64,000 bases of DNA, from contig MU004231.1 in assembly GCA_010405405.1 (NCBI GenBank), positions 1,104,153-1,168,152 of the forward strand, given 5' to 3'. Position 1 is the stretch's first letter. Each line of letters starts with the position of its first letter. Below the pieces are notes generated by a model. The model made no database searches. It was given only the letters and a program-made list of their open reading frames with translations, and was not told the origin of the DNA. Shown here piece by piece: positions 1 to 28,766 of the stretch. The position numbers and the translations under genes are program-made. This DNA comes from Microthyrium microscopicum. Taxonomy: Eukaryota.

Positions 1-275
1 GTGGCGAAGCCAGGCTTGACAGTTCGCGGTCTTGGCATTCAAAAGGGGCCGAAACTGGGACCACCTCCACGATATAAAAAAATCCGTGTTCTTTCAATAA
101 TGCGGTCAAATCAAATCAAAGCCTTGAAATGCATAGAACAACACATAAGCTAGCCAGATTGCAATAATGCATAAGGAAACTACTAGAGGAAGTAAACCAA
201 CCGAATGAGTAAACATAGAGATGTGAACGAGATGTGAACGAGTCGACGGAGCTTCGCGAGTTGAAGCTGAGTCGG

Positions 276-550
276 GCTCTCCACGGAGCTCCTCTCTCCT
301 CGAAGAGTCTCTCCACAGAGATATTCTCTCCTTGAAGATCATCTCTCCTCGGCTGTTCTCTCCATGGAGAGAGTCTCTCCTTGGAGAATCTCTCCGCAGA
401 GCTCTTCTCTCCACGGAGAGGTCTCTCCACGGAGAGGATCTCTCCACGAAGACATTCCCTCCTCGGAGACGTCTGTCCACGGAGAGAGTCTCTCCACGAA
501 GAATCTCTCTCCATGAAGAATCTCTCCACGGACCTCATCCCTCCATGGCG
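276..550. repeat. Degenerate minisatellite, ~17 copies of TCTCTCC(A/T)(C/T)G(G/A)AG, period 15-18 bp
   Basis: Counted directly in the sequence. The unit is partly self-complementary (CTCTCC...GGAGAG). Confidence 0.85.
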
Positions 551-972
551 ATCTATCATGTCATCATTCTCACGAGTACGCTTGATATCCGCTTATAAAC
601 AATCTTTTGCCTTGCACATCTCCAGTCCAATCCGAGTCTCATTTATCTGCTGTTCAGCAAAATTATGACACCGCGCGATCGCGAGCTTGCTAAGTATGGT
701 GAACCACAGAATCCCTGAATTGGATCAGGTCAAGTCATGCAGCTATTCGGAGTTCTGTAACCTTGAGGCTGCGGAATTAGCTAGCACTATCTATTTAGCC
801 AGTTGGGGTTCTAATTGTGTCTCTTTTCCAATTGCTTCTTGGGTTTCTGCTTATAACATGCTAAAGCACCGGAGATGGGATTGCGCACTGAAATGCTAGT
901 ATTGATCTCATTGAAAATATTTCGATACACGTGTAACACCTGAAACTCCCACCCTAGCAATTTATCTATAGA

Positions 973-1566: not shown

Positions 1567-3359
1567 CCTTGGGGTGTGCAAGTGGATATTTGTAGATGTG
1601 ATTTTTGACGGTTTGAGCTTCGTAGAGATTTTGGTTCTGAGTAATTATGAAGCTCTTAGATTTCGTCCAGTCCTTGCTCTTCTTATACTGACTCTGGCCT
1701 TCTGAAATCCTCGTCGTCGTGTGGCTTGCCCACAGGGGTCCATTTCTGGGACCCCCTCTGGTGATGACTCTCTGGTTCCTAAAAGGAGGCTGAGCAACAC
1801 GGTAGCCAAATTAAACATCAGTAATCTTTCATTCATTGGCCTCATGTTCCATAGATGCAGCTACTGACTGAGCAGAGCCGATCCAGGACCAAAGCATAAC
1901 CGATGGAGGAGACGCAGTTGTTGCCAGTCCAGGCTGTTCAGCAATCCACGGTATACGGCATCAGATTGTAGAACAAGTTTACAGCCTCAGACTCTGTGGT
2001 GGCATAGCAGTCGCCGAGGAAGACAATTCGTTGATGATAGGAAACAACATCAAGCCGGTGACCACATTCGCCCTCCGCCACTCGAATACCTCCAAGCTCA
2101 TGATCAAGGGCACAGCAATTGACCTCTCGGTCTCGTATATGCTGAGGGTGCACATGCCGCGCCCGCTGCATTTCTGCGCGCTTCATCGTCAAGACTCAGA
2201 CGGAGGCTATTGATGTTGCCTGGCTGGTCCCGAATGCTAATAGCGACTTTACTTTGAACGACCGTTTTTCCAAAAGTGAGATTTTGTTGAGAAAGCGTTC
2301 CAAGGCAGATACGAGAGCTCCATATTGTTGGCAAGTGGCATCATTCTCTGTTGCTGTGCTAGCATCGTGGTTCAAATTGTGGTCGTTTGATTGCTTGCAG
2401 ACTTGGATTTGGGGATACAAAGGAGAGCTTTGCCAAGAATGCCAGGCCCAAGCGTCCTTCCGTCTTCTTTGCACTCCATCATCCTTCCAAAAACGTCAAC
2501 TGAAATTGAGTACGGAGTTTCAACGAACCACTTATCTAACAAAGGAAGCTCTTATGTGCAATCGTTTTGATTCACTCGTGGATGGTACTCCCTTCTGACA
2601 CAAAGTAAGTTTATGCCGCTGGCAGAGGTATCAACTCGGGTCTACGCAGTTCTATCGTAAATGTGCTCGCCTTTACTCCAGCCCTCACCTTGGACTTTGA
2701 GGAGAACGATGTGATTGAACTTGTGGCGTACGTCCTCTCCTCGAGGAGCCTGCCCTGCCACATATGACTACACTTACCTTATGGCACCACTATTTCCGAA
2801 GCTTAACGCATCTCCATTGGGTCAAAACTAAGGATAACGCTTCAGCATACGATTACCTTTCGACGAAATATCAGATCGAGAGACGGAGAGCGTTGATAGT
2901 GTCTTCTACGCATCTTCTTTCGTGGTGGGGCCATATCCGGCACCCTCCACGTCAGTCCTTGCTGTGAGGGACCATGCGGATTACGAATTGTTCAGCCTCT
3001 TTCATGCAAACTGTGCATTGCCTGCACATCTACGAGTTCTGGTCCACCGTGAGATGCTGCGCCCGTATCAGCCGCAGGCATCATCGTCATGCCATGATCA
3101 GTGGTTGAAACGAAGCAGGCCGTGATGCCCAGTCATCCTCTGTGACCGCTATCGTTGATTGCAGATCAGGAACGCGAGTTGGTGGCAGTGTCTTCTTCCT
3201 GGTCCGGCATGAATGAGAATACGCCTCCCCCTGAGACACGACGCCAGTCTGATCAGATATAAGATGCGGCGTGTCCTAGTCGCTCCTGGTATTGAGTTAC
3301 ACTTTTCGGTTCGTCCTCAACAGCCTACGGTGCATACTGATTCTCCTCTGGTCTTGAAA

Positions 3360-5026
3360 ATGCCAAAACAACGAAACTCCACAGTTAGACACTCTGGGCC
3401 TTCACTCAGCCCATACCGAAGACCCAGCATACAAGCTCGCACTACAGACGATGCTGAGTTTTCAGAACAGCTCACTGCATTGCAGCAACTGGCAAGTAAA
3501 TTGGCTGCCAAGCGAAGGATCGTCATCATCAGCGGAGCTGGCACATCCACGAATGCAGGCAGTAAGTCACAGGAAGTCGATGGTTCGTGCTCTAACCAGA
3601 TTCCGTGACAGTTCCTTGCTTTAAGAGTCTCTCGAGGACTAAGATGGCCAGCCGAAACGTATTCGATCTTTCAGCGTATTCTTCGCTGGAATCTGCCAAC
3701 TTATTACACGAGAGTGAGCTGCAGATACTCGAATCAGCGTCCAGGAATGAGCCTCAGCCTTTTGAGCTTTTCATGGAACAGTTGGCTCAATCAGGCCGCC
3801 TTCACCGACATTATACTCAGAACATTGATTGCCGCACGAGCAAGCTCCCCGCACTGAGTCAAAGAACGATTAATCTCCATGGTCGACTGGATAGATTAAG
3901 GTGTCACGTATATTCTCAGCACACAGTTTCAGTTCAGCAGCAGTCACTGCGGGAGTTGCTGGGTGCCCGATGCCCGGTATGCGACGAGAAGAATGAAGAA
4001 CGGTCCCGAGAAGGGAAGAGACTTCACAGCGTGGGATTTCTTCGACCCGACGTGTTACTATACAATGAGAGTGACGGAGCCGATCCTCAGATCATGAAGG
4101 CGTTTGAAGAGGATCTACGTGGAAATATCGATGCGGTCATCATTGTTGGAACGACGCTCCACATTCCTCTTTTGGAAGACTTCACAACCAAAGTCTGCCG
4201 AAGAATGAAACCTTCCACGGGAAAGACGCATTTACCTAGGACTGAAGGAATGGTTTTATGGATCAGCACCGAGAAACCAAAGGTAAGAGCAAAACTAAGA
4301 GATCTCATCGACTCAAAGTTCCTCCAAGACTGCGACGAATTCGCAGTTCAAATCTCTCCATGGCTTGACAACCTAAAAGGTAAGATGTCCCTCAGCAAAA
4401 AATAATCATTACTAAGTATGCACAGATATCTCATCTAGTGTCATGGCTTCGACAGAACCCGATGTTGGGATTGAAAGAGAACTTCAGTCCCCACGGAGCA
4501 GCACATTTGATCCTCCTAAACCTATCAGATCTATCGTCGATCTTACGGTTGACCAAGAACACTGCTGCCTATGTCCAAATGTCTTGGGCGAAGGAGGAGA
4601 CCTTGAAAGCAGAGCCTTTGTCTTCAATGACTGCGGATGTGTAAGCGAACGACGAAATCAACTTTGGCTGTGCTGATCAATAACTAGGTCCTTTGCGGCG
4701 AATGTGTTGGAAATGACAGCTCCATCGAGCTCACATGCCCAAAATGTGACCATTTTGGCAGCCTTTATTCCCACCCGCAAATCGTCCGTCAAGACTTTGG
4801 GCTCATGTGCCCTATTTGTTTCGAATCAGCAGGAACGGATACGGCGATTGAGCGCGTTTGCACGCCTTGCGGTAAGTGAGTATTCAAAAGCTTAGGAAGA
4901 ACCCGGCTTAATCAAAAAAAGGCCATGCATTCTGTCGTGCATGCATCACGGCGTATCTGGAAAACGGACAAAATGACACGTCTTCGAAATGTCCGACCTG
5001 CAAGGCTAAAATTCCCCGCGATGTAG
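3360..5026 (+). CDS. Sirtuin (Hst3/Hst4-like) fused to a SIM-like motif and two RING fingers; 5 exons
   Basis: Sir2 motifs GAGTSTNAGIPCF, YTQNID, LHG, LRPDVLLYNE, IVGTTL. GT-AG introns 3562-3611, 4380-4425, 4641-4688 and 4872-4921 join in frame to CCLC..CGCVLCGEC..CPKC and CPIC..CGHAFCRAC..CPTC. Stop TAG at 5024-5026. Confidence 0.75.
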
Positions 5027-5484
5027 GTCATTTTGGATGTCTGCAAACTGTCCAGCGAGGGCTTGACATTGTCGAGAATTGAATGTTGTGGGTAGATGCA
5101 CTGTAATGGCGTTCGAGGCGGCGGTTTGTACACCTTCATAACCCTGCCTCAGAGGGATATCCATAGCCTTCTTCTACAGTACAGTACTGTACCGGACTGT
5201 ATGAATCATACGCTTAGATTTCCTGCGAGAAAACACTAGCATTGCGCGAATGCTCGAAATCAGGCACCCCAGGCTGATTACGGGCCCATTCGTGCTACAA
5301 TGAAGTTGATCGTCGACATTCAGCATGGGGCCCGAGACTGGACCCCGGGTTCAAAACTGGGACACTTGGTGTCAGTATACACGGCACAGCAACGCTATAA
5401 ATCTGTAAATTCCGCTTCAAAAGACTGCACAAACTCACTACTGTATCAGAAGCAAAGCAGAAGTTCAAGTTATCTTATACCATA

Positions 5485-6152
5485 ATGGCAGGAACGAAAC
5501 GCTCCCGTGCTGATTCGGAAACGGAGGAGGAGAAGTCAAACGCCAAGCGCCATAATGGCGAAGCTCCTGAGCACGAGGCAGAAAAGGAGAAACCTAAGGA
5601 ACAACCATCTCAGGACCACAGCAAGCAAGCCAAAAAAGCGGAAGACGGCTCGGAGTCGAAGCAAAAGCGCGCGCGGGAGCCAGAGAGCACTGACGAACCG
5701 GAGGCCAAACGCAGAGCCCCTTCCAGCCAGGGCGAAACTGCATATGATCATGCTCACAGAGTCAAACTTCGCACCCAAGTGAGGGCTTGTAAAACTCTCG
5801 CTGACTGTGGAGGTATCCTCAACAAGATTCCTGCCAGTAATATTATTGCTCTTGCCTTTGCTTTAAACGACGCGAAAGAGAACCATCGCCGCGAGTTGTT
5901 CGGCATTCTTCCCAAAAGTCTTTCTTCTCAGATTGTTGACATTCTGGCGAATGCCATCATAGACAGAAAGCGGTACGATCCAGAGTCACTTTATCCTATT
6001 AACTTATCGCTTTGAACAGGATCTTGCAAGCAATACCATTTTCAGGATATGATTCTAGAAAGCTGCAGAAAGTACTCATTCACAAAGGATGCCTGGCGAA
6101 ACAGCTGGATGGCGATGAGTCGCCATTTTTCGCAATGTGCCCATGTTTCTGA
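5485..6152 (+). CDS. Hypothetical protein with charged, NLS-like N-terminus; 2 exons
   Basis: ORF 5485-6015 with a TATA at ~5396. Probable intron 5972-6019 extends the frame to TGA at 6150-6152. Confidence 0.55.
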
Positions 6153-6747
6153 ATGGCAAGCAAGCTAGTTGCGGCGTTCGTTTTGATATCGATTGATTCC
6201 TAAATAGCTCAGTTTAAGTTAGTCAATGAAAAATCTTCTGCCACAATCCCCTCATGAATATCAGGACGTCAATACCTTAAATGAAGTTCAGATATTCTGC
6301 ATATAACATCCCAAATTGCGAGAACTGGCTTCAGGCCTCTTGCATTACCCCGTAACGTCACCTTTTGTCTCCCCGTGATTGATCACTTGAGCATGCACAT
6401 TACCCTGCGTAAGGCGGTGGTGATGATTTACCCATTGACATCGAGATTTACCAAAGAATCATCAACTGAGAGTCGTGCCTGATTTTGGTCCCTTTCAGTT
6501 TCACTCTCTTCGTATGGATGAGCGCCTCCACAAGCCCAGTTCTGGTCCCCCTTCGAGGTCCGAAACTGGACCCCGTCGAACGGCGACAACTTGCTCTGAT
6601 AGCGACCACTTTCAGTCTCGATGTGTTTCTCATGATTTAGAGTTCAGTCTTGGGCCCCCCTCAAGCTCCTTATAAATCCACTCGCTAGGACAGCTTGAAT
6701 CTATCTCGCATCAAATCTCTCACATCTAAGCAATATTATTAGTGAAC

Positions 6748-7887
6748 ATGGATAGCAACATGGAAGGAACTGGGGGTCAACAGAACCCTCCTCCAGCTAA
6801 TGGTCAACAGGACCCTCCTCCAGCTAATGGCCAACAGAACCCTCCTCCTGCTAATGGTCAGGATCCTCCTCCATCGAAGGGCCAACAAGAACCCCCTGAG
6901 GCCGGCGGCCAGGGGAGTCCAGATGAGCCAGTTCCAAGCACGGAAGGTGGAGAACAAGGTGGAAACTTTTTTCCAGGCCTCAATGGTTCCACAAAGTCTG
7001 GCTCCGGTTCAGGCCCATCTAAATCCACGCCGAAAGACAACGACCCAGATAGCGAAGAATACGGACCACCGATAGTCTTTATACCTGTGCCGAAAACGAC
7101 CGAAGGCGATGGCACAGTTGGATGGACCAGTCTCTGGGGGAAACTGTATCTCAATCGGTACGGAAAGAAAAGCCATGCAACATACCGAGTTGAGAAAGAC
7201 TGCGTTGATGGCTACGACAAGCCAGACGAGGAGAATATTAACAGCCTCCTGAACCGGCGCGGACATCTGAAAGTAAATGAAAACAGCACAGAGCGTAAAT
7301 ACACGAGAAGACACATCAATCGCATTCTCGCTGTTGCATGGCAAGGAAAGATTGCTACCACCGCTGACGAGGAATTTGATCGCTCAGAAGACCTAGATCT
7401 GATCAATCCGGCTATCAAACCAGATAAGACCAAGTATCCTCGCACCTATGTTTACGTCCGTTGGCTAATTGACGGAGAATTCGTTAAGACATGGGAGCCA
7501 AGGACCGAGCTTCAGGTTCGATACGGAGCGAAACTCGCGAACGATATCATCTTTACCGCTGCCAAGGAACAAGAAGAGAGATACAGCGATGCAAAGACTG
7601 GTAAGCGCAGGGCATCAAGCAGATCTCCTTCTGTCGGATTGGCAGACGGCGCGGTTCGCGAAGAACGCGAGAAGTCATTGGAGGCAGAGCGCAAGCGCGG
7701 CACCAGGGAAACGACTCCTAGAACAGCAGCCAAGGTTAGCGATCTGGTTATGAAGCTTATGGACGAGTTCAAGGAAATGCATCTTGCCTTGAAGGGCGTA
7801 GAGATGTACGAAGAACTTGATACTGAAGAGAAGGCCGAATTCTTTGACGAATGGAAGGAGTACAAGGCTGCCAGGATCAAGGCGTAA
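6748..7887 (+). CDS. Hypothetical protein with N-terminal GQQ(N/D)PPPAN repeats and a chromo-like C-terminal domain; paralog of 35789
   Basis: Long ORF with a TATA at 6671. Contains INRILAVAW...YVYVRW...TWEP and shares LDLINP and other blocks with the 35789 ORF. Confidence 0.7.
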   Translation: MDSNMEGTGGQQNPPPANGQQDPPPANGQQNPPPANGQDPPPSKGQQEPPEAGGQGSPDEPVPSTEGGEQGGNFFPGLNGSTKSGSGSGPSKSTPKDNDPDSEEYGPPIVFIPVPKTTEGDGTVGWTSLWGKLYLNRYGKKSHATYRVEKDCVDGYDKPDEENINSLLNRRGHLKVNENSTERKYTRRHINRILAVAWQGKIATTADEEFDRSEDLDLINPAIKPDKTKYPRTYVYVRWLIDGEFVKTWEPRTELQVRYGAKLANDIIFTAAKEQEERYSDAKTGKRRASSRSPSVGLADGAVREEREKSLEAERKRGTRETTPRTAAKVSDLVMKLMDEFKEMHLALKGVEMYEELDTEEKAEFFDEWKEYKAARIKA

Positions 7888-7974: not shown

Positions 7975-8431
7975 TAACATGGGTGCCGGCGTGGCGAGCC
8001 GCTGTTAGAGAATAGGATAAAAGGGATAATTCTTCTATCTAGAGTTCTAAGACTACCTTATATAATGCTTATGTACATGGGTAGTGTTAGAGACTGTTGG
8101 AACCACTCAGGTTTCCGTATATATACGGGATTTGGTCATAAAGAGTTCGTAGCTAATGATAGACTGGTATTCTGGTTTTCTGGTTGATGATGCTTTATTC
8201 TTGTCTAAGTACAGATGGTAGATTCCTGAGGACTAGCCTGCCAAGGATATCACGTGATATAACTAGAGATCCAGACAGAGACTGATACTATCACCAACAT
8301 TGATTGTATCAGTCCGAGATATCACAGCCACGTGATTGTGTCAGTCTAAGACATCAGTCACGTGACTATACATGGACAGAGGTGTGGGTGTCCCCATTTA
8401 ACAGCGGCTCGCCACGCCGGCACCCATGTTA
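7975..8431. mobile_element. MITE-like element: perfect 33-bp terminal inverted repeats (including flanking TA) around an LTR-like interior
   Basis: 7975-8007 taacatgggtgccggcgtggcgagccgctgtta is the exact reverse complement of 8399-8431. Confidence 0.75.
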
Positions 8432-9498: not shown

Positions 9499-10367
9499 CT
9501 ATCCCGGTGCGGCGGGCCGCCCGGTACAACGGACCACTTTATAGTTGAAAGTACTACCTGTCTCTAGTTCGCATATATATAAGGTTTCCCTTCATCAGAC
9601 CCTATTCTATAGCTGTTTCTCTAGAGTAAGAGATGGCGCAGCTTGAAAAGTTCTAGAACATCTCTATGGCCGACTCCGTCGTACATTTTTAAATTGTCCC
9701 CCCGAGTTTTCAGCCAAGGGATCACAAGTGCCTTTCACCTCGAACGCAGAATTATGTACTATTCAAATAGAATGGACTTATTGCACCTAAAAGGGTTAAG
9801 GTCTATCCACATATAACGAGCCAACTCATTCAACGGGCCGGATTCTAAATCCGGAGCAGCTTCTAACCTCCCTTCGAAAACATGTCGAGGGGTTATTGCT
9901 CGATAAATACTATACAAAATTTACTCTCTAACTTATAAGCCATTGATTTGAAACAAAGATCGATTGTATGGTGGCGTACCTGCTAATCGTTTTAATGGTG
10001 CCATTCATTTCATCTCATCGATACATAGTATATTAGAGTTACCGAGAGGAGCTGTTAATGTCGGTAGATATTGATTCTGATTCCAGCTTGCCTGCAGCAG
10101 GCTGAAGGTACCGGGTGGCGCGTACTAGTGACACGCCACTCCTTAGTAATTACCCTTATATCCTATGTACACATATACACTCTCTTGTACCTTTCCTTAG
10201 ACAGAACAGATAACACAATAGACACTAGAGGCTCCTTTTAAATAAGGCGAGCTTTGTGTCAACGTAGTTATCAAAAGTACACTTGGTAATTACTATTTAC
10301 TAATAGTTAAAGAGGATAGAAATCAGACTCAAAAAACTTGTAATACTAAGGGTATGTTAGTATAATA

Positions 10368-11160
10368 CTATCTTTTAATACCATTAATGTTGACTGTAGC
10401 CCTAATTCCTACCATGTCCTCCCTTATACCCTCCATGGCTACCTTGATTCCCGCCGTGTCCTCCCTCATACCCTCTATGGCTACCTTGATTCCCGCCGTG
10501 TCCTCCCTTATACCCTCCATAGCTACCTTGATTCCTATCGTGTCCTCCCTTATATCCTCCATGGCCACCTTAATTCCCGCCGTGTCCTCCCTCATACCCT
10601 CCATGGCTACCTTAATTCCCACCAAGTCCTCCCTTATACCCTCCATAGCTACCTTGATTCCTACCATGTCCTCCCTTATACCCTCTATGGCTACCTCGAT
10701 TCCCACCGTGTCCTTCCTCGTAACCGCCGTAGCCACCCTAATTCCCACCGTGTCCTCCCTTATACTCTCTATGGCCACCTTGATTCCCGCCGTGTCCTCC
10801 CTTGTAACTGCCGTAGCCACCCTGATTCTTACCGTATCCTTCCTTATACCCTCCATGGCTACCTTGATTCCCGCCGTGTCCTCCCTCGTAACCGCCGTAG
10901 CCACCTCGATTCCCACCGTGTCCTCCACCTTGCCCGCCTTCGTATCCGCCGTAACCACCTTGATTTAAGCCATACCCTCCTTGCGCCCCAGCATGCACGC
11001 TTTCATTATATTTCGGCTGGTTTGCAAAATCTTGAGGATGCTTCTGCCCGGTTGCAGCGTCGGTAATCTTGTGCAGGAGTCCAGATGATGATTGTTGCGA
11101 ACCTGTAGACTGCTTCTGCCCAGACATCTGGTCAGCGATTTTGCCAAGAAGGCTAGACAT
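10368..11160 (-). pseudogene. Gly/His/Tyr-rich repeat protein (GGYGGYEGGHGGNQ-type repeats), RIP-damaged
   Basis: ATG at 11160. Tandem 21/42-nt repeats continue past an in-frame TAG at 10738-10740 (expected CAG). Repeat variants are dominated by G>A/C>T changes. Confidence 0.7.
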
Positions 11161-13291: not shown

Positions 13292-14677
13292 CTAAATAGA
13301 TGTACCAGGATAGTAGAAGGCAGAGACAGCGATGATAACATATACAATAACGCAGAGTGCCCCCTCGAGATAATTGCTCTTCTGGTCACGAAGGAAGTTG
13401 CCTACAACAACGATTGCCAGGATCATAATAATGATCTCAAAAAGCTCGAAGTTGAGGTTCATTGTCTTGCCAAGGCCCCATCCTACGATAACTACTAGCG
13501 GGGTATTGAAGAGAGCTGTTTGGATGGTCGCGCCTAGGACATGAGACAGGGCAAAGTTCATCTGGTTGTCCCAGGCTTCATCGATGGCTGTAAGATGCTC
13601 GGCGGCCTTCTCAACAAGAGGGACAAGGATAAGACCCATGAAGGCCTCGGTGATGCCACGTTCCTCGACGATATAACCAATCTGCTCAACCAAGGATATA
13701 GCAACTAGTGTCACTAGAGTCATAGATACTAACAAGGCGATGACACATTCCGTCAAGGTGAGCTTTGACTTTGCAGCATCTCTGGCTTTGTCTGCATCCT
13801 TCTCTTCGTCCCGTTCCAAGATAGCATCAAAGATGCAGTGCTGTGTTCGCATTTGAAACCAGATATAGATGAGGTAGGCGATGATGAGAAGGATTGAGGT
13901 AACTCGACTGATATGAAGCACATTATCTTGAATGGTCTCTTCTGTGATGTTTGAAGCGCCGGCGATGGCATGGTAATAAGCAGATGGAACAATAAGGGCA
14001 AGCCCACTGCGATTCAAAATTAGCAATGGCACTGACGGCTGTTTGGATAGGTAGGCAAACGCTGTTAATAATATACCACAACCGACTTCGCTAACGGTAT
14101 CACTAAATTCTTACTCGCCGCGTCTCAGGCCGCCAGCGAAGAAGCAGAACCCGAGACAAAGAAGCATTATAACAAGTATAGAGCCTAAGACTGCGGACTT
14201 AACAACAGGATATTAGTCCCGTATTAACAGCACTATAAAGAAGATAAGCTCAACCATTAATCCCAGCATGTTCTCAATCAGGACGCCGGCCACTTTTAGG
14301 AGCTTACGTGCAAACTCTTATCCGGCAAAGCCAATCGTATTAGCACATAGTACCATAGCAAGATAGTTAAGGATGAAGACAATAAGATGCAAGTTACTCT
14401 TAATATAACGCAGAGCGAGTGCTACAGAAACCGTGGGCCATAATATATTGCAGAGCCTAGATGCATCGCTCATTGATGTCCAAAGAATTCTGAAGAAGTG
14501 TATTGGGTGTATACCCCTTCGCCCACTTTCACCACCAGGAGCGATCTTTCTGGTGATGCCATGACCATGGCCGGCCTCGACAGCATTCTCTAGATCGGCC
14601 GTAACCAAGGGATCCTTGCTTCGTTGAAACAATGCCATGTTACCGGCAGTGCTAATGTTGCTATGATGAATGGACAC
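13292..14677 (-). pseudogene. Ca2+/H+ exchanger (CAX, VCX1-like) with RIP-type premature stops
   Basis: LGSIL, FFAGGLR, VEKAAEHLTA, GATIQTAL and KSNYLEG motifs. In-frame TAA at 14318-14320 (GFAG*EFARK) and ~14213-14215 (RD*YPVVKS), both compatible with CAA>TAA. Confidence 0.8.
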
Positions 14678-15025
14678 TCGGTGTCCGTTGTTGCTGTCTT
14701 GCAGAGGGCGCGACTAGGACGAACCAGTATGGTCTTCAGGATAAGCAGATAAAATACTTTTCGTTCATTCCAAGGATGCGACTTGTTTTCTGCGGTGAGG
14801 ATGAGGATCAAGTATAATCGGGAGCCAGAAACTGGAATCCAAGTTCTGCTGGCTAGATTGGTGCGATGACGGCATTAACCCGTTATGGCATAGGTCATCT
14901 CTTGGCTGCTTTCGTCTCATGTGGGGTCATCACCCACTTGAAGTATTCCAGCAGCTCATCAGCTCGTATCTTATTATCCGCACGGACACTGCATCACATC
15001 CTCGATTATCCAGACTCACGACACG

Positions 15026-16690
15026 ATGGTGTGGTCAAAATCTAATCGAATTTCGGTCATGTTGGCTATCGATGTGGCCTTCTTCCTGTTGGAGCTAGGT
15101 GTTGGAATGGTCGTGGGCTCTCTGGCTCTTATGGCAGATGCCTTTCATATGGTGAGATGAGACGGCACTCTTGAGTTGAGAACGTGTACTATACTAACAG
15201 CGCGTTAGCTCAACGACATCATCTCCCTCATCGTTGGCTTGTGGGCTGTAAAAGCTGCTCAGAAACCACGGTCCGACAAATACTCATTCGGAGTATGTAC
15301 GAGGTCCGCTCCATGGACAATCTCAGCGCAATGCTAATTTGTTCCTGAAGTGGCTAAGAGCAGAGATTCTTGGCGCCTTCTTCAATGCCGTCTTCCTCAT
15401 TGCCCTCTGTCTCTCCATCATCCTCGAAGCAATGACTCGTCTCCTCGATCCTCCTGAGATCAGCAACTCTAAAATCATCCTTATCGTTGGCTCGTTGGGC
15501 CTTGCTTCAAACCTTGCGGGGTTCATTGTATTAGGAGGGCACTCTCACGGGGAAACAGAGCACGATGGCCCTGTTGACGACGTCCGCACTGTCGAGGAAG
15601 GATACGGCGGGCATACTGGCGCGATTGAAGCAGAGTATTCAGGTAAGCTATAAAAGGGCAGCCGTCTCGAAATATTGATCGCTAACGCTAACATGTTAAA
15701 GGTGGGATAAAAACAATTACGCCTTCACAGATCCGGGTCGTTTCCTCGAGTAACATAGGTGCGAATTCGAATATACACAGACGACGAAGCAGCAAACTTA
15801 GAGGCATCGTGGATGGGAGCATATACCCTGCAAGCTTCAGACAAGGAATTATTCGCGCCGGCAAGTCTACTGCAAAAGGATATGGAACTGCCACTGTTTT
15901 GGACGAGTCCGAAGACGATACCGCAGAAGAGCCTTCCGAAACTTCTCCACTTGTGAAGAGCAAAAGTGGCAGCCCTTCCCAGAAGCGCCGCAACACGTAC
16001 AGTCGATCCCGTAAAGGATTTCGGTCGGAGGCTGCGCATAGCAACTACAACCACAGCAAGCTCGCGAAGAAAGCTAATGGCGGTACTGATATGGGCACCA
16101 GTGCGATGATCTTACACGTCATTGGAGATGCTCTCGGCAATGTGGGCGTGATTGCATCGGCGCTCATTATCTGGCTTACTCCATGGTCTGGCCGGTTCTA
16201 CGCCGATCCTGCTGTCTCCTTATTCATCGCAGTCATCATCTTGAAGACGACTATACCTTTGACTACCGCCAGCGCCAAGATACTGTTACAAGGTACCCCG
16301 GATCATCTTGACATCAATAATATCAAAGATGATATTCAAGAGATCCTAGGAGTTGTCAACTGTCACCATATCCATTTATGGCAGTTAAGTGAGACCCAAC
16401 CAGTTGCGTCCCTTCACCTTCAACTCGATTTCCCTATTGAAGAAGGTGGGGTTGCTGCGAGATACATGATACTAGCAAAGGCGGTTCGAGAATGTCTGCA
16501 TGGATATGGAATACACAGCGCTACTATTCAGCCTGAGTTCTGCTTGAACGACAAACACGACCATGTAGGGCAGGCGCAGCCATCGACAAGCCTAGACGGC
16601 TTTCAATCACTGCGTCAGGTAGAGGGATTAGATCACGACGCATGCCTAATCGAGTGTGTAGATGACTGCGAGGAAAGTACCTGTTTTTAG
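15026..16690 (+). CDS. CDF-family zinc transporter (ZRC1/COT1-like) #2; 4 exons
   Basis: SLALMADAFHMLND, YSFGWLRAEILGAFFN, GGHSHG, LHVIGDALGN, YADP, HHIHLW, GIHSATIQPE, C-terminal Cys motif. Introns ~15152-15208, ~15293-15350 and 15643-15701 keep the frame. Confidence 0.9.
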
Positions 16691-17709
16691 CTTTTATTGA
16701 GGTGCAACACCAAATTTGGACCTATTCTCTCTTATTGGACCAGCGCAAGAACTCCGCAGACGAATTAAAGCCCAAGTGGTTGATGCGACGCCAGCATTTG
16801 GGCTGACGAGTGTTGTATATGTTCTTCCGTGAATAGATCTCACAATTACGCTAGCATTCTAATTCCACAAATTTACTTTTCCAGCTACGCTGGTTGGTAT
16901 TCTAACTCCCACAGGCTCACCTTAATCAATTAAAAAAGTATAAAAATGAAAACTCACCTATTACCGGCATTCCTACCCGCTCCTCGTCTCCTCTTGAACC
17001 CTCTTGATGTATTTCCCTTCCGCCTCTTCTTGAAGAATCGTCGTCAGATCGGCCGTACCACTGTACACTATAGCACGTCGACCAAAAGGCACCCGGTCCG
17101 CCTTTCCCGATTGGATGTAAATTGAGATGCTGAGAATCTAATCCAATTTAGAAGTTGTATGAAAACGGAAGTGAGGGGTAACTGACATAACCTTCATCTA
17201 AAGTGTCGTCAGCTAGGGCGTTGTTAAGTAAAGACTTCACTACAATCCTAATGTCTATTCACAGTTAGCCTGAATTTATGGCCATTACACCCGAAAACAG
17301 AAATCACAATTTACAATATCGCTGTTGTTGTTAACAGCGTCATATAGAACACAATACGCGGCCGCATAGGAATCTAGTGGGAGGCAATATCACAAGCAGG
17401 AAACAGCTTTATCGGACAAATAAGCCTCAGAGAGATGAAGTAGTACAGATAGACGAAGCTGAACAGTGGAGGGAGACTGTAGGGTATACGGACGACACAA
17501 CACAAGTGTGCAGAGCACGAGAGAGACACACAGTATCAGATTACAGACAAAATCATACCACAGACAACATACAAGAAGTAACTAGGATTAAAGAACATGT
17601 ACACAGATAGATAGATAACGCAGAGCTGAGGGGGCAGCTGGTCATACTTCTGGTATGGCGAAGTGGGGCTTAATCAAATTAAGCGTCGGCTGCTTGGTAA
17701 CGCTCTGTA

Positions 17710-19515
17710 ACGTAGTAGACAGGGTTTCCGACAGACCCCCTTTCCGACACCCTACATTAGATAATTGTAGATTTACTTAAACCACTATAATAATGCAATT
17801 AAATGTTATTTCGCTTTGAAATTTAAATAGTGAATTAAGAAGACCTTAAAAATTACGTTTCTGCCTTTTTAAATAGCAAATATACCTTAGAAGTTAAAGC
17901 AGTAAAGGCTTTTAGGGTTCCTAGATCTACCTTAAAGAGATAATTAAAAGGCACTAAAAGTCATAAATCTAGCTATTCCTCTTATTAGAAATTGTTAATT
18001 GTAGAAAAGTATAAAGTTGTCCTTTAGTGTAAGAGTAAGGAATTAGCTAGTTATCCTCCTACCTATATAAGAATTAAAGACTTTGCCTAAGAGATTTTAT
18101 AATAGTAAATTCTAGAGGCCTTTTTAGGCACAAATTAGCATAAATTATTCAAAAGATAAAATCTAGATATTATTTCTATTATAGCAAGACGTATTAATAA
18201 ATAGCGAGTTAATAGAACTAATTTCAAAGCTATTATAGACTTCTTTTAACAATTTGAAAGTGCTATTTCTTTCCTTAAGGTTAAACTAGCTAATATATAT
18301 AATATAAACAAGATAGGAATACGTTTAGGTATTACTAGCAAAGAAGTAGTTATTATATCTTAATAGATAGCAGAAACAACGAAATCTAGAAACTTATTTA
18401 TCTTAGAGAATGGTAGTAAAGAGAATACTTTAATTCTTAAAACTATATTAGCTACTAGTTAAACTATACCATTTTTAGCTATCTATAAAGGCTAAAACAT
18501 TTAAGATTCTTAGTTCCCTCCTAGATTACGTAAAGAGCTTAAATCTAAAGGCTTTTCCTTTGCTATAATAACTAATAGCTAGACGTTAAATTAGTTAGGC
18601 AAACAATAGCTTAAAACGACCTTTTTACCCTTTATAAAACTATTAGATTCTTTAGAATGGAGGATTTTAATCTATAATAACTATAGATTATATATTACTT
18701 TAGAATTTCGCTATCTTTACCTTAAAAATAAGGTCTAAATCGTCTATTTACCTCTATATTTATTATATCAAACTTAGCCTTTAGATATTAGCATTTTTAG
18801 ACTATTAAAATGACATTTTATAGCTACACTTAATAGATCTTCTCTTAAGTCTTTATTTACTCCTATTTAGAAGAGAATCTTTATATAAATATATATAATT
18901 ACTTATTAAAAAGCTTTCTATAAAGCAAATGGCGTTTCTGCTTTTAAAGTAACTAGAATTTAGCCTATAAATTGATATAAAGTACTTTAGTATATTCTAC
19001 TAACTCCTAAAAATTCTTAGTAGTTAATTTCTATGCAATCTATACCTATTTCTCCTTCTTTATCTTCTTTGCCCTTTATTAAAAGGCTTTAGTTTACGCT
19101 AAGAACGAAGAGATTAGTTATATATAGTATTTTAAGAGAAATAAGCTAAATCTCTTTTTACAATTTAGCTTTATAATAATATATAGTTATGCTTTAAAAT
19201 TAAGTAACTATGCTTATAGTACCTAAAGGATTAAGCATAAGGAAGAAGAGGAATTATAATAAAGAATTAAAGGATATAAATTTAATTACATTAAAATATG
19301 CTTTAAATAAGCTTATGCAAGCTTCTAAAGCTATTTTAGAGGCTTAGAAACTAATTAAAAAGAGGAAATGTAGCGTAAAGATTAAGCTTAATTTATCTAT
19401 TTAATTTATTTAAATATCTTATATTTTAGTTGAGATATTTTGTAGTGATGATCTAGTAATTATCTATTTTGGGGGTGTCGGAAAGGGGGTCTGTCGGAAA
19501 CCCTGTCCACTACGT
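17710..19515 (+). mobile_element. pogo/Fot1-type (Tc1/mariner superfamily) DNA transposon, RIP-degraded
   Basis: 43-bp TIRs starting ACGT (17710-17752 and 19473-19515, 1 mismatch), TA duplication on both sides, ~1.8 kb, very AT/TpA-rich stop-riddled interior. Confidence 0.9.
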
Positions 19516-19748
19516 TATCCGGGCATGGATGCGTGAAAAGCGGCCAACATCGAGTAGGAATTAATCAATCAATCAATCAACCTCGCCACTCATTTATTGT
19601 AATCCAAGTGAGATACTCTGTACTGTCTTGCGCTAAACTTTGCCCGCCAATTCTGAACTAATATGCGTCTATGGACGTGAGCCAGGAAGATCATCTCGAG
19701 CTAGTATTTGGCCCAGTCCAGACGCTCCTTGTTGTCACCTACTGCAAT

Positions 19749-21316
19749 CTATTCTTTCCTGCTGCTCTGAAGCATTGCCAGTTGCAATGCTGACCGAGCA
19801 TTCCAATCCGGGATATTGTAGAATTGCACTACCTCGACTCGATCCCCAAGCTTGACATCTTTAAGGGTTGGCTGGGGCGCATCTCTTGCAACCTGAAGGG
19901 CGATGTTCAGCCACTGGTCCCAAGCCTCTGACATTGGCGCTGCTTTGCTTCGACGTACCCAGTCGATCTCGCGAGTGGCGATAATGACCTTCCATAGTGC
20001 TTCGGTGAAAGTCTCATTGTATGACACGTAGTGTTCTCGGCAGCCTGGTTCAGGTGGGCGCTTCGATCGGTTCCTCGCAGACCGTTTGGTCCTGCTATGC
20101 CCTGAATCTTTGAGCAAGTTCTTTGCCACGGGTGTTGGTGCTTCGTTAAATGCTTCGGGGCTGACTTGAAAGGCGGATGTGTCCCAGTGGAAGTTCTGAG
20201 GTAAAGCAGCAATAGTCCAGTACGCTGCATTTAAGATTAGATATGAGACTGCAAAGGCAACCTGAGAATTTGTCCCAGCATTACTGAGGAACAGTACGCT
20301 AAACATCAGGATGATGCTACTTATGAGAGCAGTGATTCGATGTTTGTATGGCTGTTGCATGTGGTAGTCAATACCCTCAGGGGCGAAGTATAGCTCTCTA
20401 GCAACGTCCTCGGTGCATCGAACAATGATAAAACTGCCTTTCGGATATCTGATAACCACGTCCCCAGGCGGTGTCCAATGATTTCTCTCCCCTGCTCTTT
20501 TGGGCAGTTTTAATCTCCATTTATTGGTCACGCCGACAAGCGTTGATAACAAAGAAAGGGAGATATCTGCAAGAATGGCCATCCCATCCCGCTGCCATAC
20601 CCCGATGCCTAAGAGGATCAGAGACAGAACGCAACCAAGTACCGCCACCCACCATGTCGGTCCATAGGTTCGGGCTTTGATTTCCCTCTTGCTGTTTACC
20701 CGCTGTATTCGAATGCATTTTACAGCGTACTCTGGAAGGCTTTCAGCTGTACTGTCATTTCACCAAGTCAGTTTCCGTGATGAAGACCTAGAGCGGTATA
20801 GTCCATTGAAGCTGTAGGCAGGTACCGGAGGATAAGATCTCAGATATGTAACTTAGGACTCATGATAAATTTCACCCGCTGCTATACGCAAAAAAGTGGA
20901 AGCACTCTAGCATTCATCACATACAATTGAGTACAGAAAGGCCGAACCTACTCATAATCTCTGAAGCTGCGGCCATCCTATAGTTGCGATATCGACGGGA
21001 AGCTATCAACTTACAGTAAAATGTGCCCCAGGAAATTTACATATGGTCTGAAATTTCCTGAACTAACTCCTACCACTTGACCTGGTATTGGGGATAGGTT
21101 GTTCTGTCGCGAAGGGAGTAATAGAGCTTGTGGGGCCGGAAGAAGTCGAGGAAGGTAGATCATACGCGAGAGCGTGGCGACTTGAGACGTGGACGTAACA
21201 GCACCTTCGCCGAGGATGGCCAAAAGGCCGACGACATTTGATTGCAAGTTATTCCACCGGAGGCCATTGGCGAACTGGCCGTTGATGTTTAGGCGACCCC
21301 AACCAAGTTGGTACAT
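19749..21316 (-). CDS. Fungal hypothetical multi-pass membrane protein, divergent from the P-type ATPase; spliced, start uncertain
   Basis: ORFs 21011-21415 (VVGLLAILGE..LPRLLPAPQALL) and 19749-20648 (several hydrophobic helices). Donor GTAAGT at ~21014; the frame stays open upstream of 20648 to ~20755. Confidence 0.6.
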
Positions 21317-21643
21317 GACGGGGCGTTGTGATACCACGGCCGAATCTTTTATAGCATGGTACCTATAAGAAGACAATGATGTGTGATTCACAGATCGTGA
21401 GAATCGTGAGGACAAAGGCTTTATCGTGTGGGGCTTCGATGCTTGACCGGTCCCAGTTATCGTGGCTAGTGATGATTGGTTGATGCTGTGCCTCGAGTCA
21501 ACCTTGCATGCTTTCGTGCAGAAATCTTCGCTTTTAGGGTTAGGCGCCCTCTCACCTCATGCCCTTTCCCCACCTGCTCCATGCCTCGCTCATTCCCTTC
21601 CATCACCACACCATCACCATCACCATCACCACAGTAAGCTAAA

Positions 21644-24600
21644 ATGGACCCAACCAATCAATGTACTTCCGGCTGTCATGAGAATGTAGAGCAATTTATG
21701 GTCAGACCTGCTGGAGTTGTCCTCACCGGGAATGAAGCCGAGGGCTGCGCTTCTGGTTGTTGCGCTGGCTCTGCCATCCAAGTTCCTGCGATCCGCGGCA
21801 ACCACACCATTACGAGTGCGCAGTGCAGCTCTGAAGACTGTAATGACTCATTGTCTATGGCAGTTCCAGCGCCTGTTAAGGAAGAGCTCGTCACAGACGG
21901 TTGTACTGGTGTTTGGTGCACTGAGAAGCCAGTTTCGGTTGCGGTCGAGGAATCACAGGCAGACAACTGCGACAATGGCTGCTGTGGAACCACAAATGAA
22001 GCGCCCATTGAAGCCTGCAAAGATGACTACTCTGGCGGCGTGAAGCCTGAGGAAGCTCAGGAGTCTAAAGGTGAGATGTAGTAAGGAATACATGGGCTAA
22101 AAGACTGACTTAACATTTCAGAGTGCAAAGACGCATGTTATTCCCCTACTAAGGTACCAACTGTCTCGGCAAATAACTGCTGTGATAGCAAGCCGACCCC
22201 ATGCTGTAATGGTATGCCCCTTCCCATCATTTCATCGACACCCACCAACCAACTAACAGAAGATTGTGTCGAACGCCTGGTTGTTCGCGAATGCGATACT
22301 GAGTGTATCGAAAGAGGCGCAAAAGGTACGTGCTTGTTTGTCTTCACGGAGCGGGCGCGCTAACAAGTCAACGTAAGGCTACAAGCGCAAGACTCCTTCC
22401 TCTACATCCTCCGATAAAGACGCAAAATGCTGCCCCAATGGTATTACTGCACGTCGGTTCTACCGTGAGCTCCTCAGAAGTCTAGGCTGCCTTTGTGGCA
22501 CGGCCAAAGCTCGTGGTGGGAAAACATGCTGTAATATTGCTTCTCGAACTGCCCCAGTTGCCCAGGAATCGATTCGACCTGCTTGCACCAAAAATCAGAA
22601 CGACCGTCTGCACCGTTCAAGCAGAGACAAATTTCCCCATTCCTCTCGTAAGGCTGACACCTGTGGCGGCGATGGTGACGATGACTGCTGCACTACAAAA
22701 CCTCATGCTCCGAGTATGAAAGAGAAGCTTCCGGAACTGGCCGTTCAAGGCGTTTCAGGTTTCACTCCATCAAACCTGGAGGATGGCGTTGCCGAAAATG
22801 AGCATGTCGTTCTCAGCGTGTCTGGCATGACTTGTGTTGGATGCGAGACCAAGCTTCAGCGATCTCTCGCTACGATCAATGCTGTGCAAAACCTGAAGAC
22901 CAGTTTGCTCCTTTGTCGAGCAGAATTCGACCTGGATCGTCGCTACGAAACCGTTGACAGCATCATCCACCAACTGCAGCGGATCACTGAGTTTAAGTAC
23001 GAAGAGCTCAGGCAAGATGGCTCCGAGATTGAAGTCTGGCCCCCTAACGTTAAGGGTTTCGTACAGCAAGATTTACCCGTAGGTGTTATCTCGCTTCAAG
23101 CGGTCGATAAGACTACTGTCCGCATCCTTTACAACCCTAGTATCGTGGGGGCGAGAGACCTGGTCGAACAAGAGTTTGGAATCCCTTTGACTATTGCTCC
23201 AATCAAGCGTGATCCAAATCTCGCAGCTGGTAGTAAGCACGTTCGACACGTCGGGCTGATGACTTTGCTATCGGCCGTGCTCACAATCCCCGTCTTGGTA
23301 CTCGCGTGGGCTCCTATACGCGAACAACCCATTGTTTACGGCGGCGTATCTTTGGCCTTAGCAACCTTGGTTCAATTTGTTGTTGCAGGCCCATTCTATC
23401 CAACGGCACTAAAGAGCTTGGTCTTTGCGAGAATGATTGAGATGGATCTCCTCATTGTGATCAGCACTAGTGCAGCATATGTTTTTTCAGTGGTCGCATT
23501 TGGCTATATGGCCGCGGGAAAACCGTTAGCCACTGGAGAGTTTTTTGAGACTAGCACACTCCTTGTTACCCTGATCATGGTTGGGCGCTGGATTAGCGCT
23601 CTAGCCCGTCAAAAAGCCGTGGAATCCGTCTCTGTACGTTCCCTGCAGACACATACGGCAGTACTTGTCGGAGCGGAAGACGAGAGTACGAGAGAGATTG
23701 ATACAAGGCTCCTGCAGTATGGTGACATCTTTCGAGTAGCACCAGAATCTCGCATTCCTACCGATGGTACCGTTATTGCAGGAGTTTCGGAGATCGATGA
23801 ATCTATGATCACAGGCGAGTCCCTTCCTGTGGACAAACGACCCGGGAAGGTTGTCATCGCAGGCTCGGTCAATGGGTCTGGAGTTCTCACTGTCCAACTC
23901 AGCAGATTGCCAGGAAATAACACTATTAGCACCATCGCAAACATGGTAGATGAAGCAAAACTGTCTAAGCCAAAAATACAGGACGTGGCAGACAAAGTGG
24001 CCAGCTTGTTCGTCCCGACCGCAATCGCACTCGCGCTTCTCGTGTTCATCATCTGGATTCCAGTTGGATTGAAGGTACGGCAATATGCTAGCTCGCGTGC
24101 GGTCACCGAGGCCTTAACATATGCCATCACTGTCATTATCGTCTCCTGTCCCTGCGCGATCGGACTGGCGGTGCCCATGGTCATCGTGGTCGCTGGGGGT
24201 GTTGCTGCTAGGCACGGTTGCATCTTCAAGACAGCCACAACCATCGAGATTGCGCGCAAGACGTCCCACGTGGTTTTTGATAAGACTGGAACTTTGACGC
24301 AGGGGCAGCTGAGTGTCGCCGCGGAAAAATGCTTCGGAGATGAGCAGTCTGTTGCCGCCGCTGTCTATGCGTTGGTATCCCAAGTTAAGCACCCAGTATC
24401 GCTTGCTGTCAAGAACAATCTTGAAAGCAAAATCGCCTCCAAGCAGAAAGCATCCGACGTTACATCTCATACTGGCAAAGGTGTAGAGGGCACTATCAGT
24501 GGAAAAGTTGTGAAGGCAGGCAATTCACGCTGGCTCGGTTTTGATGACCATCCAGCCGTAAAGAATTTTCTTGCACAGGGTTATACGACGCTTTGCACCA

Positions 24601-25205
24601 CCATTGACGGCGAATTAGTAGCGATTTTCGGCTTGCAGGATTCCTTACGGTCGGATGCAAGAAAAACCGTTGCAGAGCTCCAACGACGCAGCATCAAGGT
24701 GTCTATCGTTAGTGGTGACGATGAAGGCCCAGTCTCCATTGTCGCGCGCCAACTTGGCATCACCAGCTTCCGCTCTAAGTGCTCCCCTGCAGACAAGCTA
24801 AAGTTCGTGAAAGATCTCACCGACACGGGCAAAATCACCATCTTCTGTGGCGATGGAACCAACGATGCAGTAGCACTTGCACAAGCGACCATTGGCGTGC
24901 ATATGAACGAGGGTACGGACGTCGCGCAGAGCGCTGCTGACGCGGTTCTCGTCCGCTCATCGCTAATCGATATCATAACGCTCATCGATTTGTCAAAGGC
25001 GTCCATGCTCCGAATCGCAATCAACTTTGGGTGGTCATTTATCTACAACATTCTTGCCATCCTCCTCGCTTCTGGAGCACTGGTCAATGTTCGCATCCCC
25101 CCGAAATTTGCAGGTCTTGGAGAGCTGGTGTCTGTCCTGCCTGTTATTGCCATTGCGATGCAGCTTAGGTGGGCTAAGTTCTCCAACACCCCAACAACCG
25201 GATAA
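21644..25205 (+). CDS. PCA1: P1B-type heavy-metal ATPase with Cys-rich N-terminus (Pca1-like, probable cadmium exporter)
   Basis: Many CC/CxxxC motifs in the N-terminal exons, HMA GMTCVGC, TGES, CPC, DKTGT, HP, GDGTND. Introns ~22071-22120, ~22212-22262 and ~22326-22378 link exon 1 in frame to ORF 22716. Confidence 0.88.
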
Positions 25206-25744
25206 ACACAAAGGTAATGCAGGTGTGGCGCTGGAGTCCTTGGACTTGCTTCGAGAGTGCTGAGGACGAAATTGTGGACCTTAACGCCCTAGGGAAGTGA
25301 TATGTGTGCGAGAGCGCTTCGGTCTTGCTCTTATCTTAACTAGGATCGTGCAATTGGTATACTTCATGGCGGTAATGGCACGTAATGCACGCTTGGTTGC
25401 ATGTCCAAGTGTTAGACTACCGTGGCAAATATCCAGCACCACTTCTTCTTCCCGCGATATCCTGCTTTTTAGCCGTATGGATTCGTCAAGGAGACGGCCA
25501 TTCCGAATCATGATTAATAACGATATCGTTGATTTCTCATGAACATGCAAGTCTCACTGTAAGAAGGTTACCCGAAGGAAGTAGTTCAGTCATATGGGGC
25601 CATGTGACCTCCAGCCACACAGAGTCACGTGATCTCTAGTCATGTGATCCACGCCTACATCACGCAGGCGGAACACCTGCTTACATCTAGGCAGAGATTA
25701 GCTTTACCATCAATCTAGCCTACACTTCTATTACCATCATACTC

Positions 25745-25937
25745 ACAGTTGGGACATCTTGGGTTTAAGTTGGGCCATCGACGCCGGCTTCGATAGCAAA
25801 TTGTACGATTCAAAGGCTACCCACAGTTAAAGCCACTTCCTGCTACAGCGGCCGCTGACCCTCCTACTCGAACTGGCTGTTCGCTATGAGACAATCCAAT
25901 ACTGGCATGTGACCGACCAGCTTGTTAACTGAACCAC
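25745..25937 (+). pseudogene. Truncated second copy of the SAM-domain gene (homologous to 8931-9172)
   Basis: First 40 bp are identical to 8931-8970, then similarity continues with two deletions and a stop. Preceded by an LTR-like stretch at ~25558-25747. Confidence 0.8.
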
Positions 25938-28500: not shown

Positions 28501-28766
28501 GGTCAATATGATGTCAGTAAGTAAGAATGTGAATTAAACGCAAGCTTCATGATCTTACCGAGCACGATGGGTATATATTCGAATGCATGGGCCCAAAATC
28601 GGGACCTTTGAGGAACCTGCTATCAGTTCACCGCATAGGGTCCCGGTTTTGGACCCTCCTCCCAGAACAATAAATTCGAGAAGCTGGGAAGCTATCTCTC
28701 ACCTGGATTTCAGCAATAAACCTTTTCTAAAATTTGAAACAACCATAACATAACGCAATCTTCACA

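Follow-up and report, generated by a model that had tools for sequence, protein, structure and literature searches.

The window analysed here is a stretch of 64,000 nucleotides (nt) of fungal DNA from Microthyrium microscopicum (GenBank assembly GCA_010405405.1, contig MU004231.1, positions 1,104,153 to 1,168,152 of the forward strand), and all positions given below are counted within it. On its + strand, between 3213 and 5082, open reading frames (ORFs) are interrupted four times, and five exons, 3360 (or 3213)-3561, 3612-4379, 4426-4640, 4688-4871, and 4922-5082, join into one open frame for a sirtuin-RING protein. This protein combines, in one chain, a Sir2-family sirtuin fold, a disordered linker with the motif IVDLT, a module of eight cysteines (8-Cys module), and a canonical C3HC4 RING finger. 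The secure result is that the gene model and its splicing are right and that the architecture is rare; there is very little doubt that the sirtuin-RING architecture and its expression are real.

Structure and transcription of the sirtuin-RING gene

All four introns have GTAAG at the 5' end and AG at the 3' end, and each contains a branch site resembling CTAAC, CTAAG, or CTGAT. Intron 1 (3562-3611, 50 nt, GTAAGT..CAG) splits the motif GIP|CFK of the Sir2 domain, and intron 2 (4380-4425, 46 nt, GTAAGA..CAG, with a branch-like TACTAAG) creates the fusion by its removal. Intron 3 (4641-4687, 47 nt) lies within the 8-Cys module and intron 4 (4872-4921, 50 nt) within the C3HC4 RING. A preliminary description of this locus, made from the letters alone, had proposed that four GT-AG introns join the Sir2 domain in frame to the linker and RING, and the transcript evidence given below agrees with it on every intron. 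The end of the gene, which had been set at 5026, has to be moved: the TAG at 5024-5026 does not lie in the reading frame, and translation of the joined exons continues to the TGA at 5080-5082, 18 residues further on. There are two candidate start codons. ATG 3213 yields the 558-residue (aa) protein of the GenBank model and stands immediately after a TGA, with T at -3, and ATG 3360, with A at -3, has the better context and yields 509 aa. The equivalent of 3360 is the start in a model from Venturia, and that of 3213 in a model from Verruconis and in one fragment.

Four sequencing runs (X1, X2, X3, and X10) were aligned to the gene region, X1 in contig form. One X1 contig of 3958 nt (depth 67) covers 3200-5200 with 0 mismatches and skips exactly the four GT..AG stretches, in the blocks 3200-3561, 3612-4377(+2), 4424(+2)-4640, 4688-4870(+1), and 4921(+1)-5200. 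The first joint is thus 3561>3612, and the shorter side of the joints measures 183-255 nt each (217 nt at intron 2). The X1 record is read as complementary DNA, because the introns, which the window contains, would also be present in DNA of the same organism. In this assembled form the transcript does not stop at 4405 and the RING exons do not belong to a separate mRNA, which is the outcome that had been named in advance as speaking against the fusion. The record has a further 700 nt or so upstream of 3200 and some 1450 nt past 5200; with such long flanks it may therefore merge neighbouring transcripts, and it is silent on transcript ends. Run X2 provided one 165-nt contig with no junction in it. 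Run X3 provided three pieces, 90-95% alike, in which introns 2 and 3 are present, and since these introns are kept X3 is taken to be DNA of a relative. None of the raw RNA reads of X10 matched in the approximately 12% of that run sampled (9.29 million records over the four runs), which amounts to no test.

Two ORFs follow the sirtuin-RING gene on the + strand, and the X1 transcript contig seems to continue into their region. The ORF at 5487-6015, the next one downstream, encodes an acidic, lysine-rich protein, and 27-nt repeats in the ORF at 6730-7887 encode a proline-rich stretch; neither has a Pfam family.

The spliced translation from ATG 3213 is identical, letter for letter, to KAF2672906.1 (P0028), a 558-aa protein of M. 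microscopicum that bears the GenBank name 'DHS-like NAD/FAD-binding domain-containing protein' and sits in a 90% cluster whose representative is a 264-aa fragment. Since KAF2672906.1 and the spliced product are the same, the fusion is already annotated and merely undescribed, and the word 'hidden', which had been used of it, does not apply. A literature survey (Starship with sirtuin or RING, Sir2 plus RING domains, and sirtuin-E3 fusion, in main texts) returned no description of a sirtuin-RING fusion. The gene is a real, expressed, and rare architecture made from known parts, present in GenBank without a described function, and the function considered below is predicted from sequence.

Domains of the sirtuin-RING protein

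Sirtuins are recognised by a set of motifs comprising GAGxS, GIPDFR, QNID, and the histidine of LHG. The Sir2-family catalytic domain (3534-4379, + strand), supported by Pfam, AlphaFold2 (AF2), and Foldseek, carries GAGTS, GIPCFK, QNID, LHG, a C/H/C/C zinc site, and GTT; in the 509-aa form GAGTS is found at aa 59, GIPCFK, which spans intron 1, at aa 67, QNID at aa 137, and LHG at aa 156. The Pfam profile PF02146 (SIR2) matches residues 108-301 of KAF2672906.1 over profile positions 1-178 of 180 with 61.1 bits (cut-off 24), and exon 2 alone gives 47.6 bits. Residues N187, D189, and H206 of QNID and LHG, and C214, H220, C237, and C240 of the zinc site, are invariant or nearly so among the 26 or 16 aligned relatives. 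An AF2 model built from 16 sequences reaches a predicted local distance difference test (pLDDT) of 75-96 over residues 80-380. The model comprises the complete sirtuin fold with its small zinc domain, and Foldseek gives a probability of 1.00 to Af Sir2, SIRT2, SIRT3, and yeast Sir2 (TMt 0.57-0.79, with Af Sir2 on top at up to 0.79) and prefers no sirtuin class. By sequence, the closest solved relatives are yeast Sir2 (E 1e-11), Sir2Tm, and SIRT5, and in the ESM Atlas exon 2 leads to Sir2 clusters. The Sir2 domain that had been described, with QNID and the catalytic His kept and GIPDFR altered to GIPCFK, is therefore present; its designation as 'Hst3/4-like' found no support among the solved relatives, which favour no class.

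With the sirtuins (Sir2/Hst, SIRT1-7; PF02146) the protein shares the Pfam match, the fold, the GAG loop, QNID, the catalytic His, and the small zinc domain. It differs from them in having GIPCFK for GIPDFR, a zinc site of three Cys and one His (C214, H220, C237, and C240) where the family criterion has four Cys, and a C-terminal RING module. In comparison with the solved sirtuins, it is a protein of a small fungal clade and has only distant kin among them.

The linker that follows (4426-4562, + strand, about 46 residues) is predicted to be disordered (pLDDT <50). Relatives differ in the first part of it (15 of 24 positions are identical to fragment P0039, with one gap), whereas its end is conserved. 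Here lies IVDLT (4533-4547, aa 360-364 of the 509-aa form), a core resembling a SUMO-interacting motif (SIM). The block IRSIVDLTVDQEHCCLCPNVLGEGGDLES, which holds IVDLT and the first Cys of the following module, is identical at 28 of 29 positions in P0039, a fragment that is 83% identical overall, and in the X3 relative the Thr codon of IVDLT is changed synonymously only. The RNF4 SIM2 peptide is TVGDEIVDLTCES, and IVDLT is identical to its core, the peptide being given in the methods of PMC4083429. The motif noticed earlier in the linker is thus in place, its likeness to RNF4 being one at the level of the motif. Other hydrophobic-core matches in the protein are strands of the Sir2 fold and one LDIV at the extreme C-terminus.

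The canonical C3HC4 RING finger, CPIC..CGH..C..C..CPTC (4808-5001, + strand, split by intron 4; aa 436-483 of the 509-aa form), is matched by Pfam over residues 484-533 of KAF2672906.1. The profile zf-C3HC4 matches along its whole length (1-40 of 40) with 32.7 bits (cut-off 21), zf-RING_UBOX with 33.4 bits (25.2), and zf-RING_2 with 33.0 bits (27.3); exon 5 alone matches RING profile positions 19-40 only. In an alignment with RNF4, the RING shows CPIC and CPTC, and its last Cys is followed by a Lys. Its best sequence matches in the PDB include TRIM30 (35.3 bits), RING1B-BMI1, TRIM5, and RNF4, a single RING of which scores about 28 bits. First place on the list (3.9e-10) goes to 4ap4, an engineered chain of two RNF4 RINGs, only because it matches twice.

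The first 8-Cys zinc module, CCLC-x18-CGC-x2-CGEC-x10-CPKC (4563-4747, + strand; aa 370-415 of the 509-aa form and residues 419-464 of KAF2672906.1), is split by intron 3. Its spacing, C-x2-C-x18-C-x-C-x2-C-x2-C-x10-C-x2-C, fits the RING pattern, and an alignment of the module's second half with the first half of the RING scores 63, a value that 0 of 2000 shuffles reached. In the ESM Atlas, the frame of exon 3 gave RING-flavoured leads only (0.85-0.89), below the level that counts. All of the at least 139 PDB matches at E<=1, among the matches listed, fall on the second finger. Two RING fingers had been proposed for this tail; the second is indeed a RING, above the Pfam cut-offs, and the first matches no profile or solved chain, so that what was called the first RING is, by its sequence, better described as an 8-Cys zinc module with no family match.

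Two other interpretations of the tail were considered and set aside. An RBR-type ligase (RING-between-RING) was rejected, the order being an unknown module followed by a canonical RING, with no IBR match (best IBR_1 E 0.26, exon 5). A tandem duplication of a whole RING is not supported: introns 3 and 4 fall at similar and not identical places, in phases 0 and 1, and the best internal alignment pairs unlike halves of the two modules.

Relatives of the gene and its genomic setting

Among 437 candidates, 24 relatives of the protein were found. Proteins with 79-91% identity occur in Microthyriales, Pleosporales, Venturiales, and Xylariales. Within the close clade (64-94% identical), unspliced fragment calls (P0002, P0004, P0005, and P0039) cross intron 2 with different lengths and frames; because the read-through of the relatives varies in this way, the intron 2 stretch appears to be non-coding and intron-like. 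At 42-46% identity, proteins of Ilyonectria and Dactylonectria (P0001 and P0020) have an N-terminal DUF3716 (PF12511) and no C-terminal RING. As judged from these sequences, the Sir2 clade is one that has been fused to different cysteine-rich partners, DUF3716 and RING.

The relative X3 allows a comparison at the DNA level. Its piece over 4513-4793 has 23 differences from the window, of which at least 8 are in the 47-nt intron 3 and at most 15 in 234 exon bases. In the RING exons, five of the nine listed changed codons are synonymous and no Cys or IVDLT residue is altered, and synonymous changes make up 11 of the 21 altered codons in the Sir2 piece; the listing of differences leaves out 17 further ones.

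The fused form was absent from ten further protein clusters that were opened. Exon 3 was found in none of 57 candidates when searched in longer proteins, and the same kind of search with the Sir2 exon yielded, among 2071 candidates, one protein, with Sir2 plus DUF3716. For exon 4 no homologue turned up among 1.84 billion representatives, the two matches being unrelated repeat proteins. Absence in searches of cluster representatives is weak evidence, because the Sir2-exon search missed the 558-aa protein itself, whose cluster is represented by the 264-aa fragment. Among the sequences surveyed, the RING tail is confined to a small clade, and in this clade a number of copies are perhaps in decay.

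About 44 kb from the sirtuin-RING gene lies a captain-like gene of the DUF3435 (tyrosine-recombinase) family, consisting of two adjacent ORFs (46677-49042, - strand). PF11917 matches them at 109-201 (E 4.3e-5, 23.1 bits, cut-off 25.8) and 214-337 (E 0.59), and these matches are weak but collinear, in consecutive ORFs of the same strand. Between the two genes (13292-29825) is a cluster of genes for metal handling: a Na/Ca exchanger (13292-14110, -), a cation efflux/zinc transporter (15692-16690, +), a PCA1-like heavy-metal P-type ATPase (22377-25205, +), a DUF7492 gene (27631-28533, -; E 1.9e-99), and a ferritin-like gene (29085-29825, +). Housekeeping genes (SF3A3, DEAD-box helicase) begin past 57 kb, and the far end of the element probably lies outside the window. 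By word matching, nine run rows from six studies contain part of the stretch, five of them with half its words or more, and runs labelled as other organisms contain 27-61% of its words. Most likely, the gene has moved between distant ascomycetes.

Metal cargo together with a captain has been described for the Starship Hephaestus, according to the main text (PMC10104507). It is reasonably probable that the sirtuin-RING gene is cargo of a Hephaestus-like, metal-resistance Starship; the preliminary description had called it element-encoded, which the captain-like DUF3435 gene and the metal-resistance cargo in the window make plausible. The main text on the Zymoseptoria tritici Starship 'Swordfish' reports a sirtuin beside the captain and suggests a local epigenetic role for it (PMC11231334). 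That system is the same in so far as a Sir2-family gene is present on a Starship with a DUF3435 captain, and different in that the sirtuin there adjoins the captain and here is about 44 kb away. A RING is not mentioned in the main text of the Swordfish paper, and no Zymoseptoria protein is among the 24 relatives found. In the main texts of PMC10104507, PMC11162782, and 10.1101/2025.02.28.640899 there is no mention of sirtuin, Sir2, deacetylase, or ubiquitin.

Several further features of the window were recorded. About 1.7 kb upstream of the sirtuin-RING gene is a nucleoside 2-deoxyribosyltransferase-like ORF (973-1644, -; PF15891, E 1.1e-31), and both genes encode NAD- or nucleoside-related enzymes. 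A gene for a VWA-Hint protein is made up of adjoining ORFs with VWA, Vwaint, and Vint (Hint-type) (39192-41547, -). Repeats include a 42-nt unit present at least 12 times in tandem at 10316-11029, its copies 63-87% identical to the reference copy and located inside an open frame (10350-11066) whose protein has a 14-residue repeat and matches no Pfam family, and a dense array of 15-17-nt repeats of the TCTCTCC type at 272-565, inside the ORF at 116-592 (-). Pairs of arms resembling terminal inverted repeats are found at 30065-33078 (85 nt, 95%, around 2.8 kb), at 17708-19517 (45 nt, 98%, around 1.7 kb), and at 7975-8431 (33 nt, perfect, around 391 nt), and these three pairs may bound small transposons nested in the element.

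Possible modes of action and their alternatives

Acetylation, SUMOylation, and ubiquitination compete for the same lysines, and they are normally the work of separate enzymes or loose complexes. The domain content suggests that the protein could unite in one molecule a RING-type E3 ubiquitin ligase and a lysine deacylase dependent on nicotinamide adenine dinucleotide (NAD). In such an enzyme the RING would recruit a charged E2, and once a substrate is bound the Sir2 domain would strip one of that substrate's lysines of its acyl group; this deacylation would free the target lysine, or alter the state of the substrate for ubiquitination. The single SIM-like motif would bias the enzyme to SUMO-modified, probably nuclear or chromatin, proteins. 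This coupled mechanism of a deacylase and a SUMO-guided E3 is put forward tentatively, as a doubtful proposal. A far-reaching version of it, which must be considered quite improbable, is a horizontally mobile, Starship-borne 'lysine switch' in which the SIM would dock on SUMO-modified chromatin proteins, the sirtuin would deacylate them, and the RING would ubiquitinate them. The element might in this way reshape the surrounding host chromatin, for instance as a defence against silencing or for the removal of proteins when it excises and integrates, and the 8-Cys module might partner the RING as Slx5 does Slx8.

By analogy, the mode of action could be likened to that of an RNF4-type ligase with a built-in sirtuin. 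With RNF4 and Slx5-Slx8 the protein shares a SIM-type motif upstream of a C-terminal C3HC4 RING, the IVDLT being the core of RNF4 SIM2, and RNF4 ranks high among the solved structures that match this RING (about 28 bits single, 3.9e-10 for 4ap4). RNF4 and Slx5-Slx8 lack the N-terminal sirtuin and the extra 8-Cys module, and they have a tandem array where one SIM-like motif is found here. Since TRIM30 outscores the single RNF4 RING (35.3 versus 28.4 bits), no specific kinship with RNF4 is claimed. The principle is similar in deacetylase-ligase partnerships such as MDM2-HDAC1, and in HDAC6 with its ubiquitin-binding zinc finger, where lysine deacetylation is coupled to ubiquitin signalling. In the one case the two partners are different proteins, and in the other a zinc-dependent HDAC carries a ubiquitin reader, whereas here a predicted NAD-dependent sirtuin and a RING are in one chain.

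Taken as a whole, the statement that combines the architecture, the Starship cargo, and the coupled mechanism is only slightly favoured, and a number of observations weigh against one or other of its parts. The RNA label of X1 is a guess, and the model of KAF2672906.1 and the X1 contig may rest on the same data and are not independent. The captain-like match stays below its cut-off, and no repeat pair that would mark the Starship ends was found with one copy on the captain side and the other in the first 3.3 kb of the window. RNF4 and Slx5 use several SIMs, as a tandem array for poly-SUMO. No further SIM-like motif was found in the linker, and because there is no tandem array the protein is not filed as a member of the SUMO-targeted ligases; the term 'STUbL-like' (SUMO-targeted ubiquitin ligase) that had been used for it says more than a single SIM-like motif before a RING supports. 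The SUMO-targeted reading of IVDLT thus rests on one motif, and the SIM is a predicted one. GIPDFR is altered to GIPCFK (D to C, R to K) throughout the close clade, and because of this alteration the NAD chemistry may differ. The first 8-Cys module has no Pfam match at E<=0.1 and no PDB sequence match, and its pLDDT is <50 in both AF2 models. The AF2 model of the tail alone has a mean pLDDT of 36, and residues 381-484 of the full-length model are <50; these tail models are unreliable and give no basis for the fold of the first module or for the packing of the two modules.

The relatives add to these points. A complete in-frame tail is present in only one of the five models from named species, that of Microthyrium. 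In the Venturia inaequalis model (P0040, 458 aa), Sir2 is joined in frame to exon 3, after which the frame shifts; its 123-residue tail corresponds to exons 3-5 of the window read out of frame, 118 of 123 residues being identical, with the same intron 3 and 4 junctions. The DNA of this tail is near-identical to the RING exons of the window, whereas the Sir2 part is only 79% identical, and therefore the Venturia copy is viewed as a mosaic, which suggests recombination between variants of the element. In the Verruconis gallopava model, Sir2 is joined to the linker and ends just after IVD, and in the Xylaria bambusicola model exon-3 DNA is read out of frame; the Pyrenochaeta model is partial and uninformative. 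For the tails in Venturia, Verruconis, and Xylaria, either decay of the copies or faulty gene models could be the explanation. More distant proteins (42-50% identity) terminate with the Sir2 domain, or they have the N-terminal DUF3716 instead. A metagenome scan with the Sir2 alignment gave 598 stretches, 24 of them relatives at 22-45% identity, with no RING module downstream; a tblastn search with the C-terminal tail on these 24 loci (best E 0.038) is uninformative on close relatives.

The alteration of GIPDFR is among the observations in favour of an alternative that we regard as rather unlikely, in which the protein is a RING E3 and its Sir2 domain no protein deacetylase. The domain would then sense or consume NAD, transfer ADP-ribose, or serve in targeting by binding acyl-lysine, and IVDLT would be a non-working SIM. 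GIPCFK occurs across the close clade, while relatives at 42-50% identity keep the D and R of the motif (e.g. GIPDYRS in P0020), and the C/H/C/C zinc site, the distance to any solved sirtuin (best E 1e-11), and the single SIM-like motif are in line with such a role. The retention of QNID, the catalytic His, and the GAG loop, a sirtuin fold that is modelled whole with its zinc domain, and the higher conservation of the IVDLT block than of the surrounding linker count against this alternative. The irregular tails, in three of the five named-species models (Venturia, Verruconis, and Xylaria), are what would be expected if the gene were a decaying passenger on a mobile element, transcribed and with no selected function for the fusion, and so are the rare and patchy distribution and the lack of an exon 4 homologue among the representatives searched. 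However, the frame of 558 codons is intact across four introns and expressed at depth 67, divergence in the 90-95% relative X3 is greater in the intron than in the exons and leans towards synonymous changes, and the block of the SIM and first Cys is conserved at 28 of 29 positions; decay as an explanation for the Microthyrium gene is accordingly judged improbable.

Very improbable is a third alternative, by which two products are made, one with Sir2 only, through retention of intron 2, and one with RING only, from ATG 4443, the fusion being a minor isoform. It draws on the fact that retained intron 2 leads immediately to a stop (4403-4405) and that ATG 4443 is 18 nt into exon 3; moreover, contigs drop rare variants and cannot reveal minor isoforms or transcript ends, and the X1 contig is compatible with a minor intron-retaining isoform. 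Yet the only X1 record over the intron 2 site is spliced, the donor, branch, and acceptor of intron 2 conform to the consensus, its removal joins the exons in frame, and the Venturia and Verruconis models also link the Sir2 domain to exon 3.

If the sirtuin-RING protein acts as a coupled deacylase and ligase, its natural union of sirtuin, SIM, and RING in a single chain would offer a compact system in which to study the cross-talk between lysine modifications. If it is also Starship cargo, a role for which a sirtuin on another Starship provides a precedent (main text of PMC11231334), it would be a candidate for how giant fungal transposons handle host chromatin, as predicted from its domain content.

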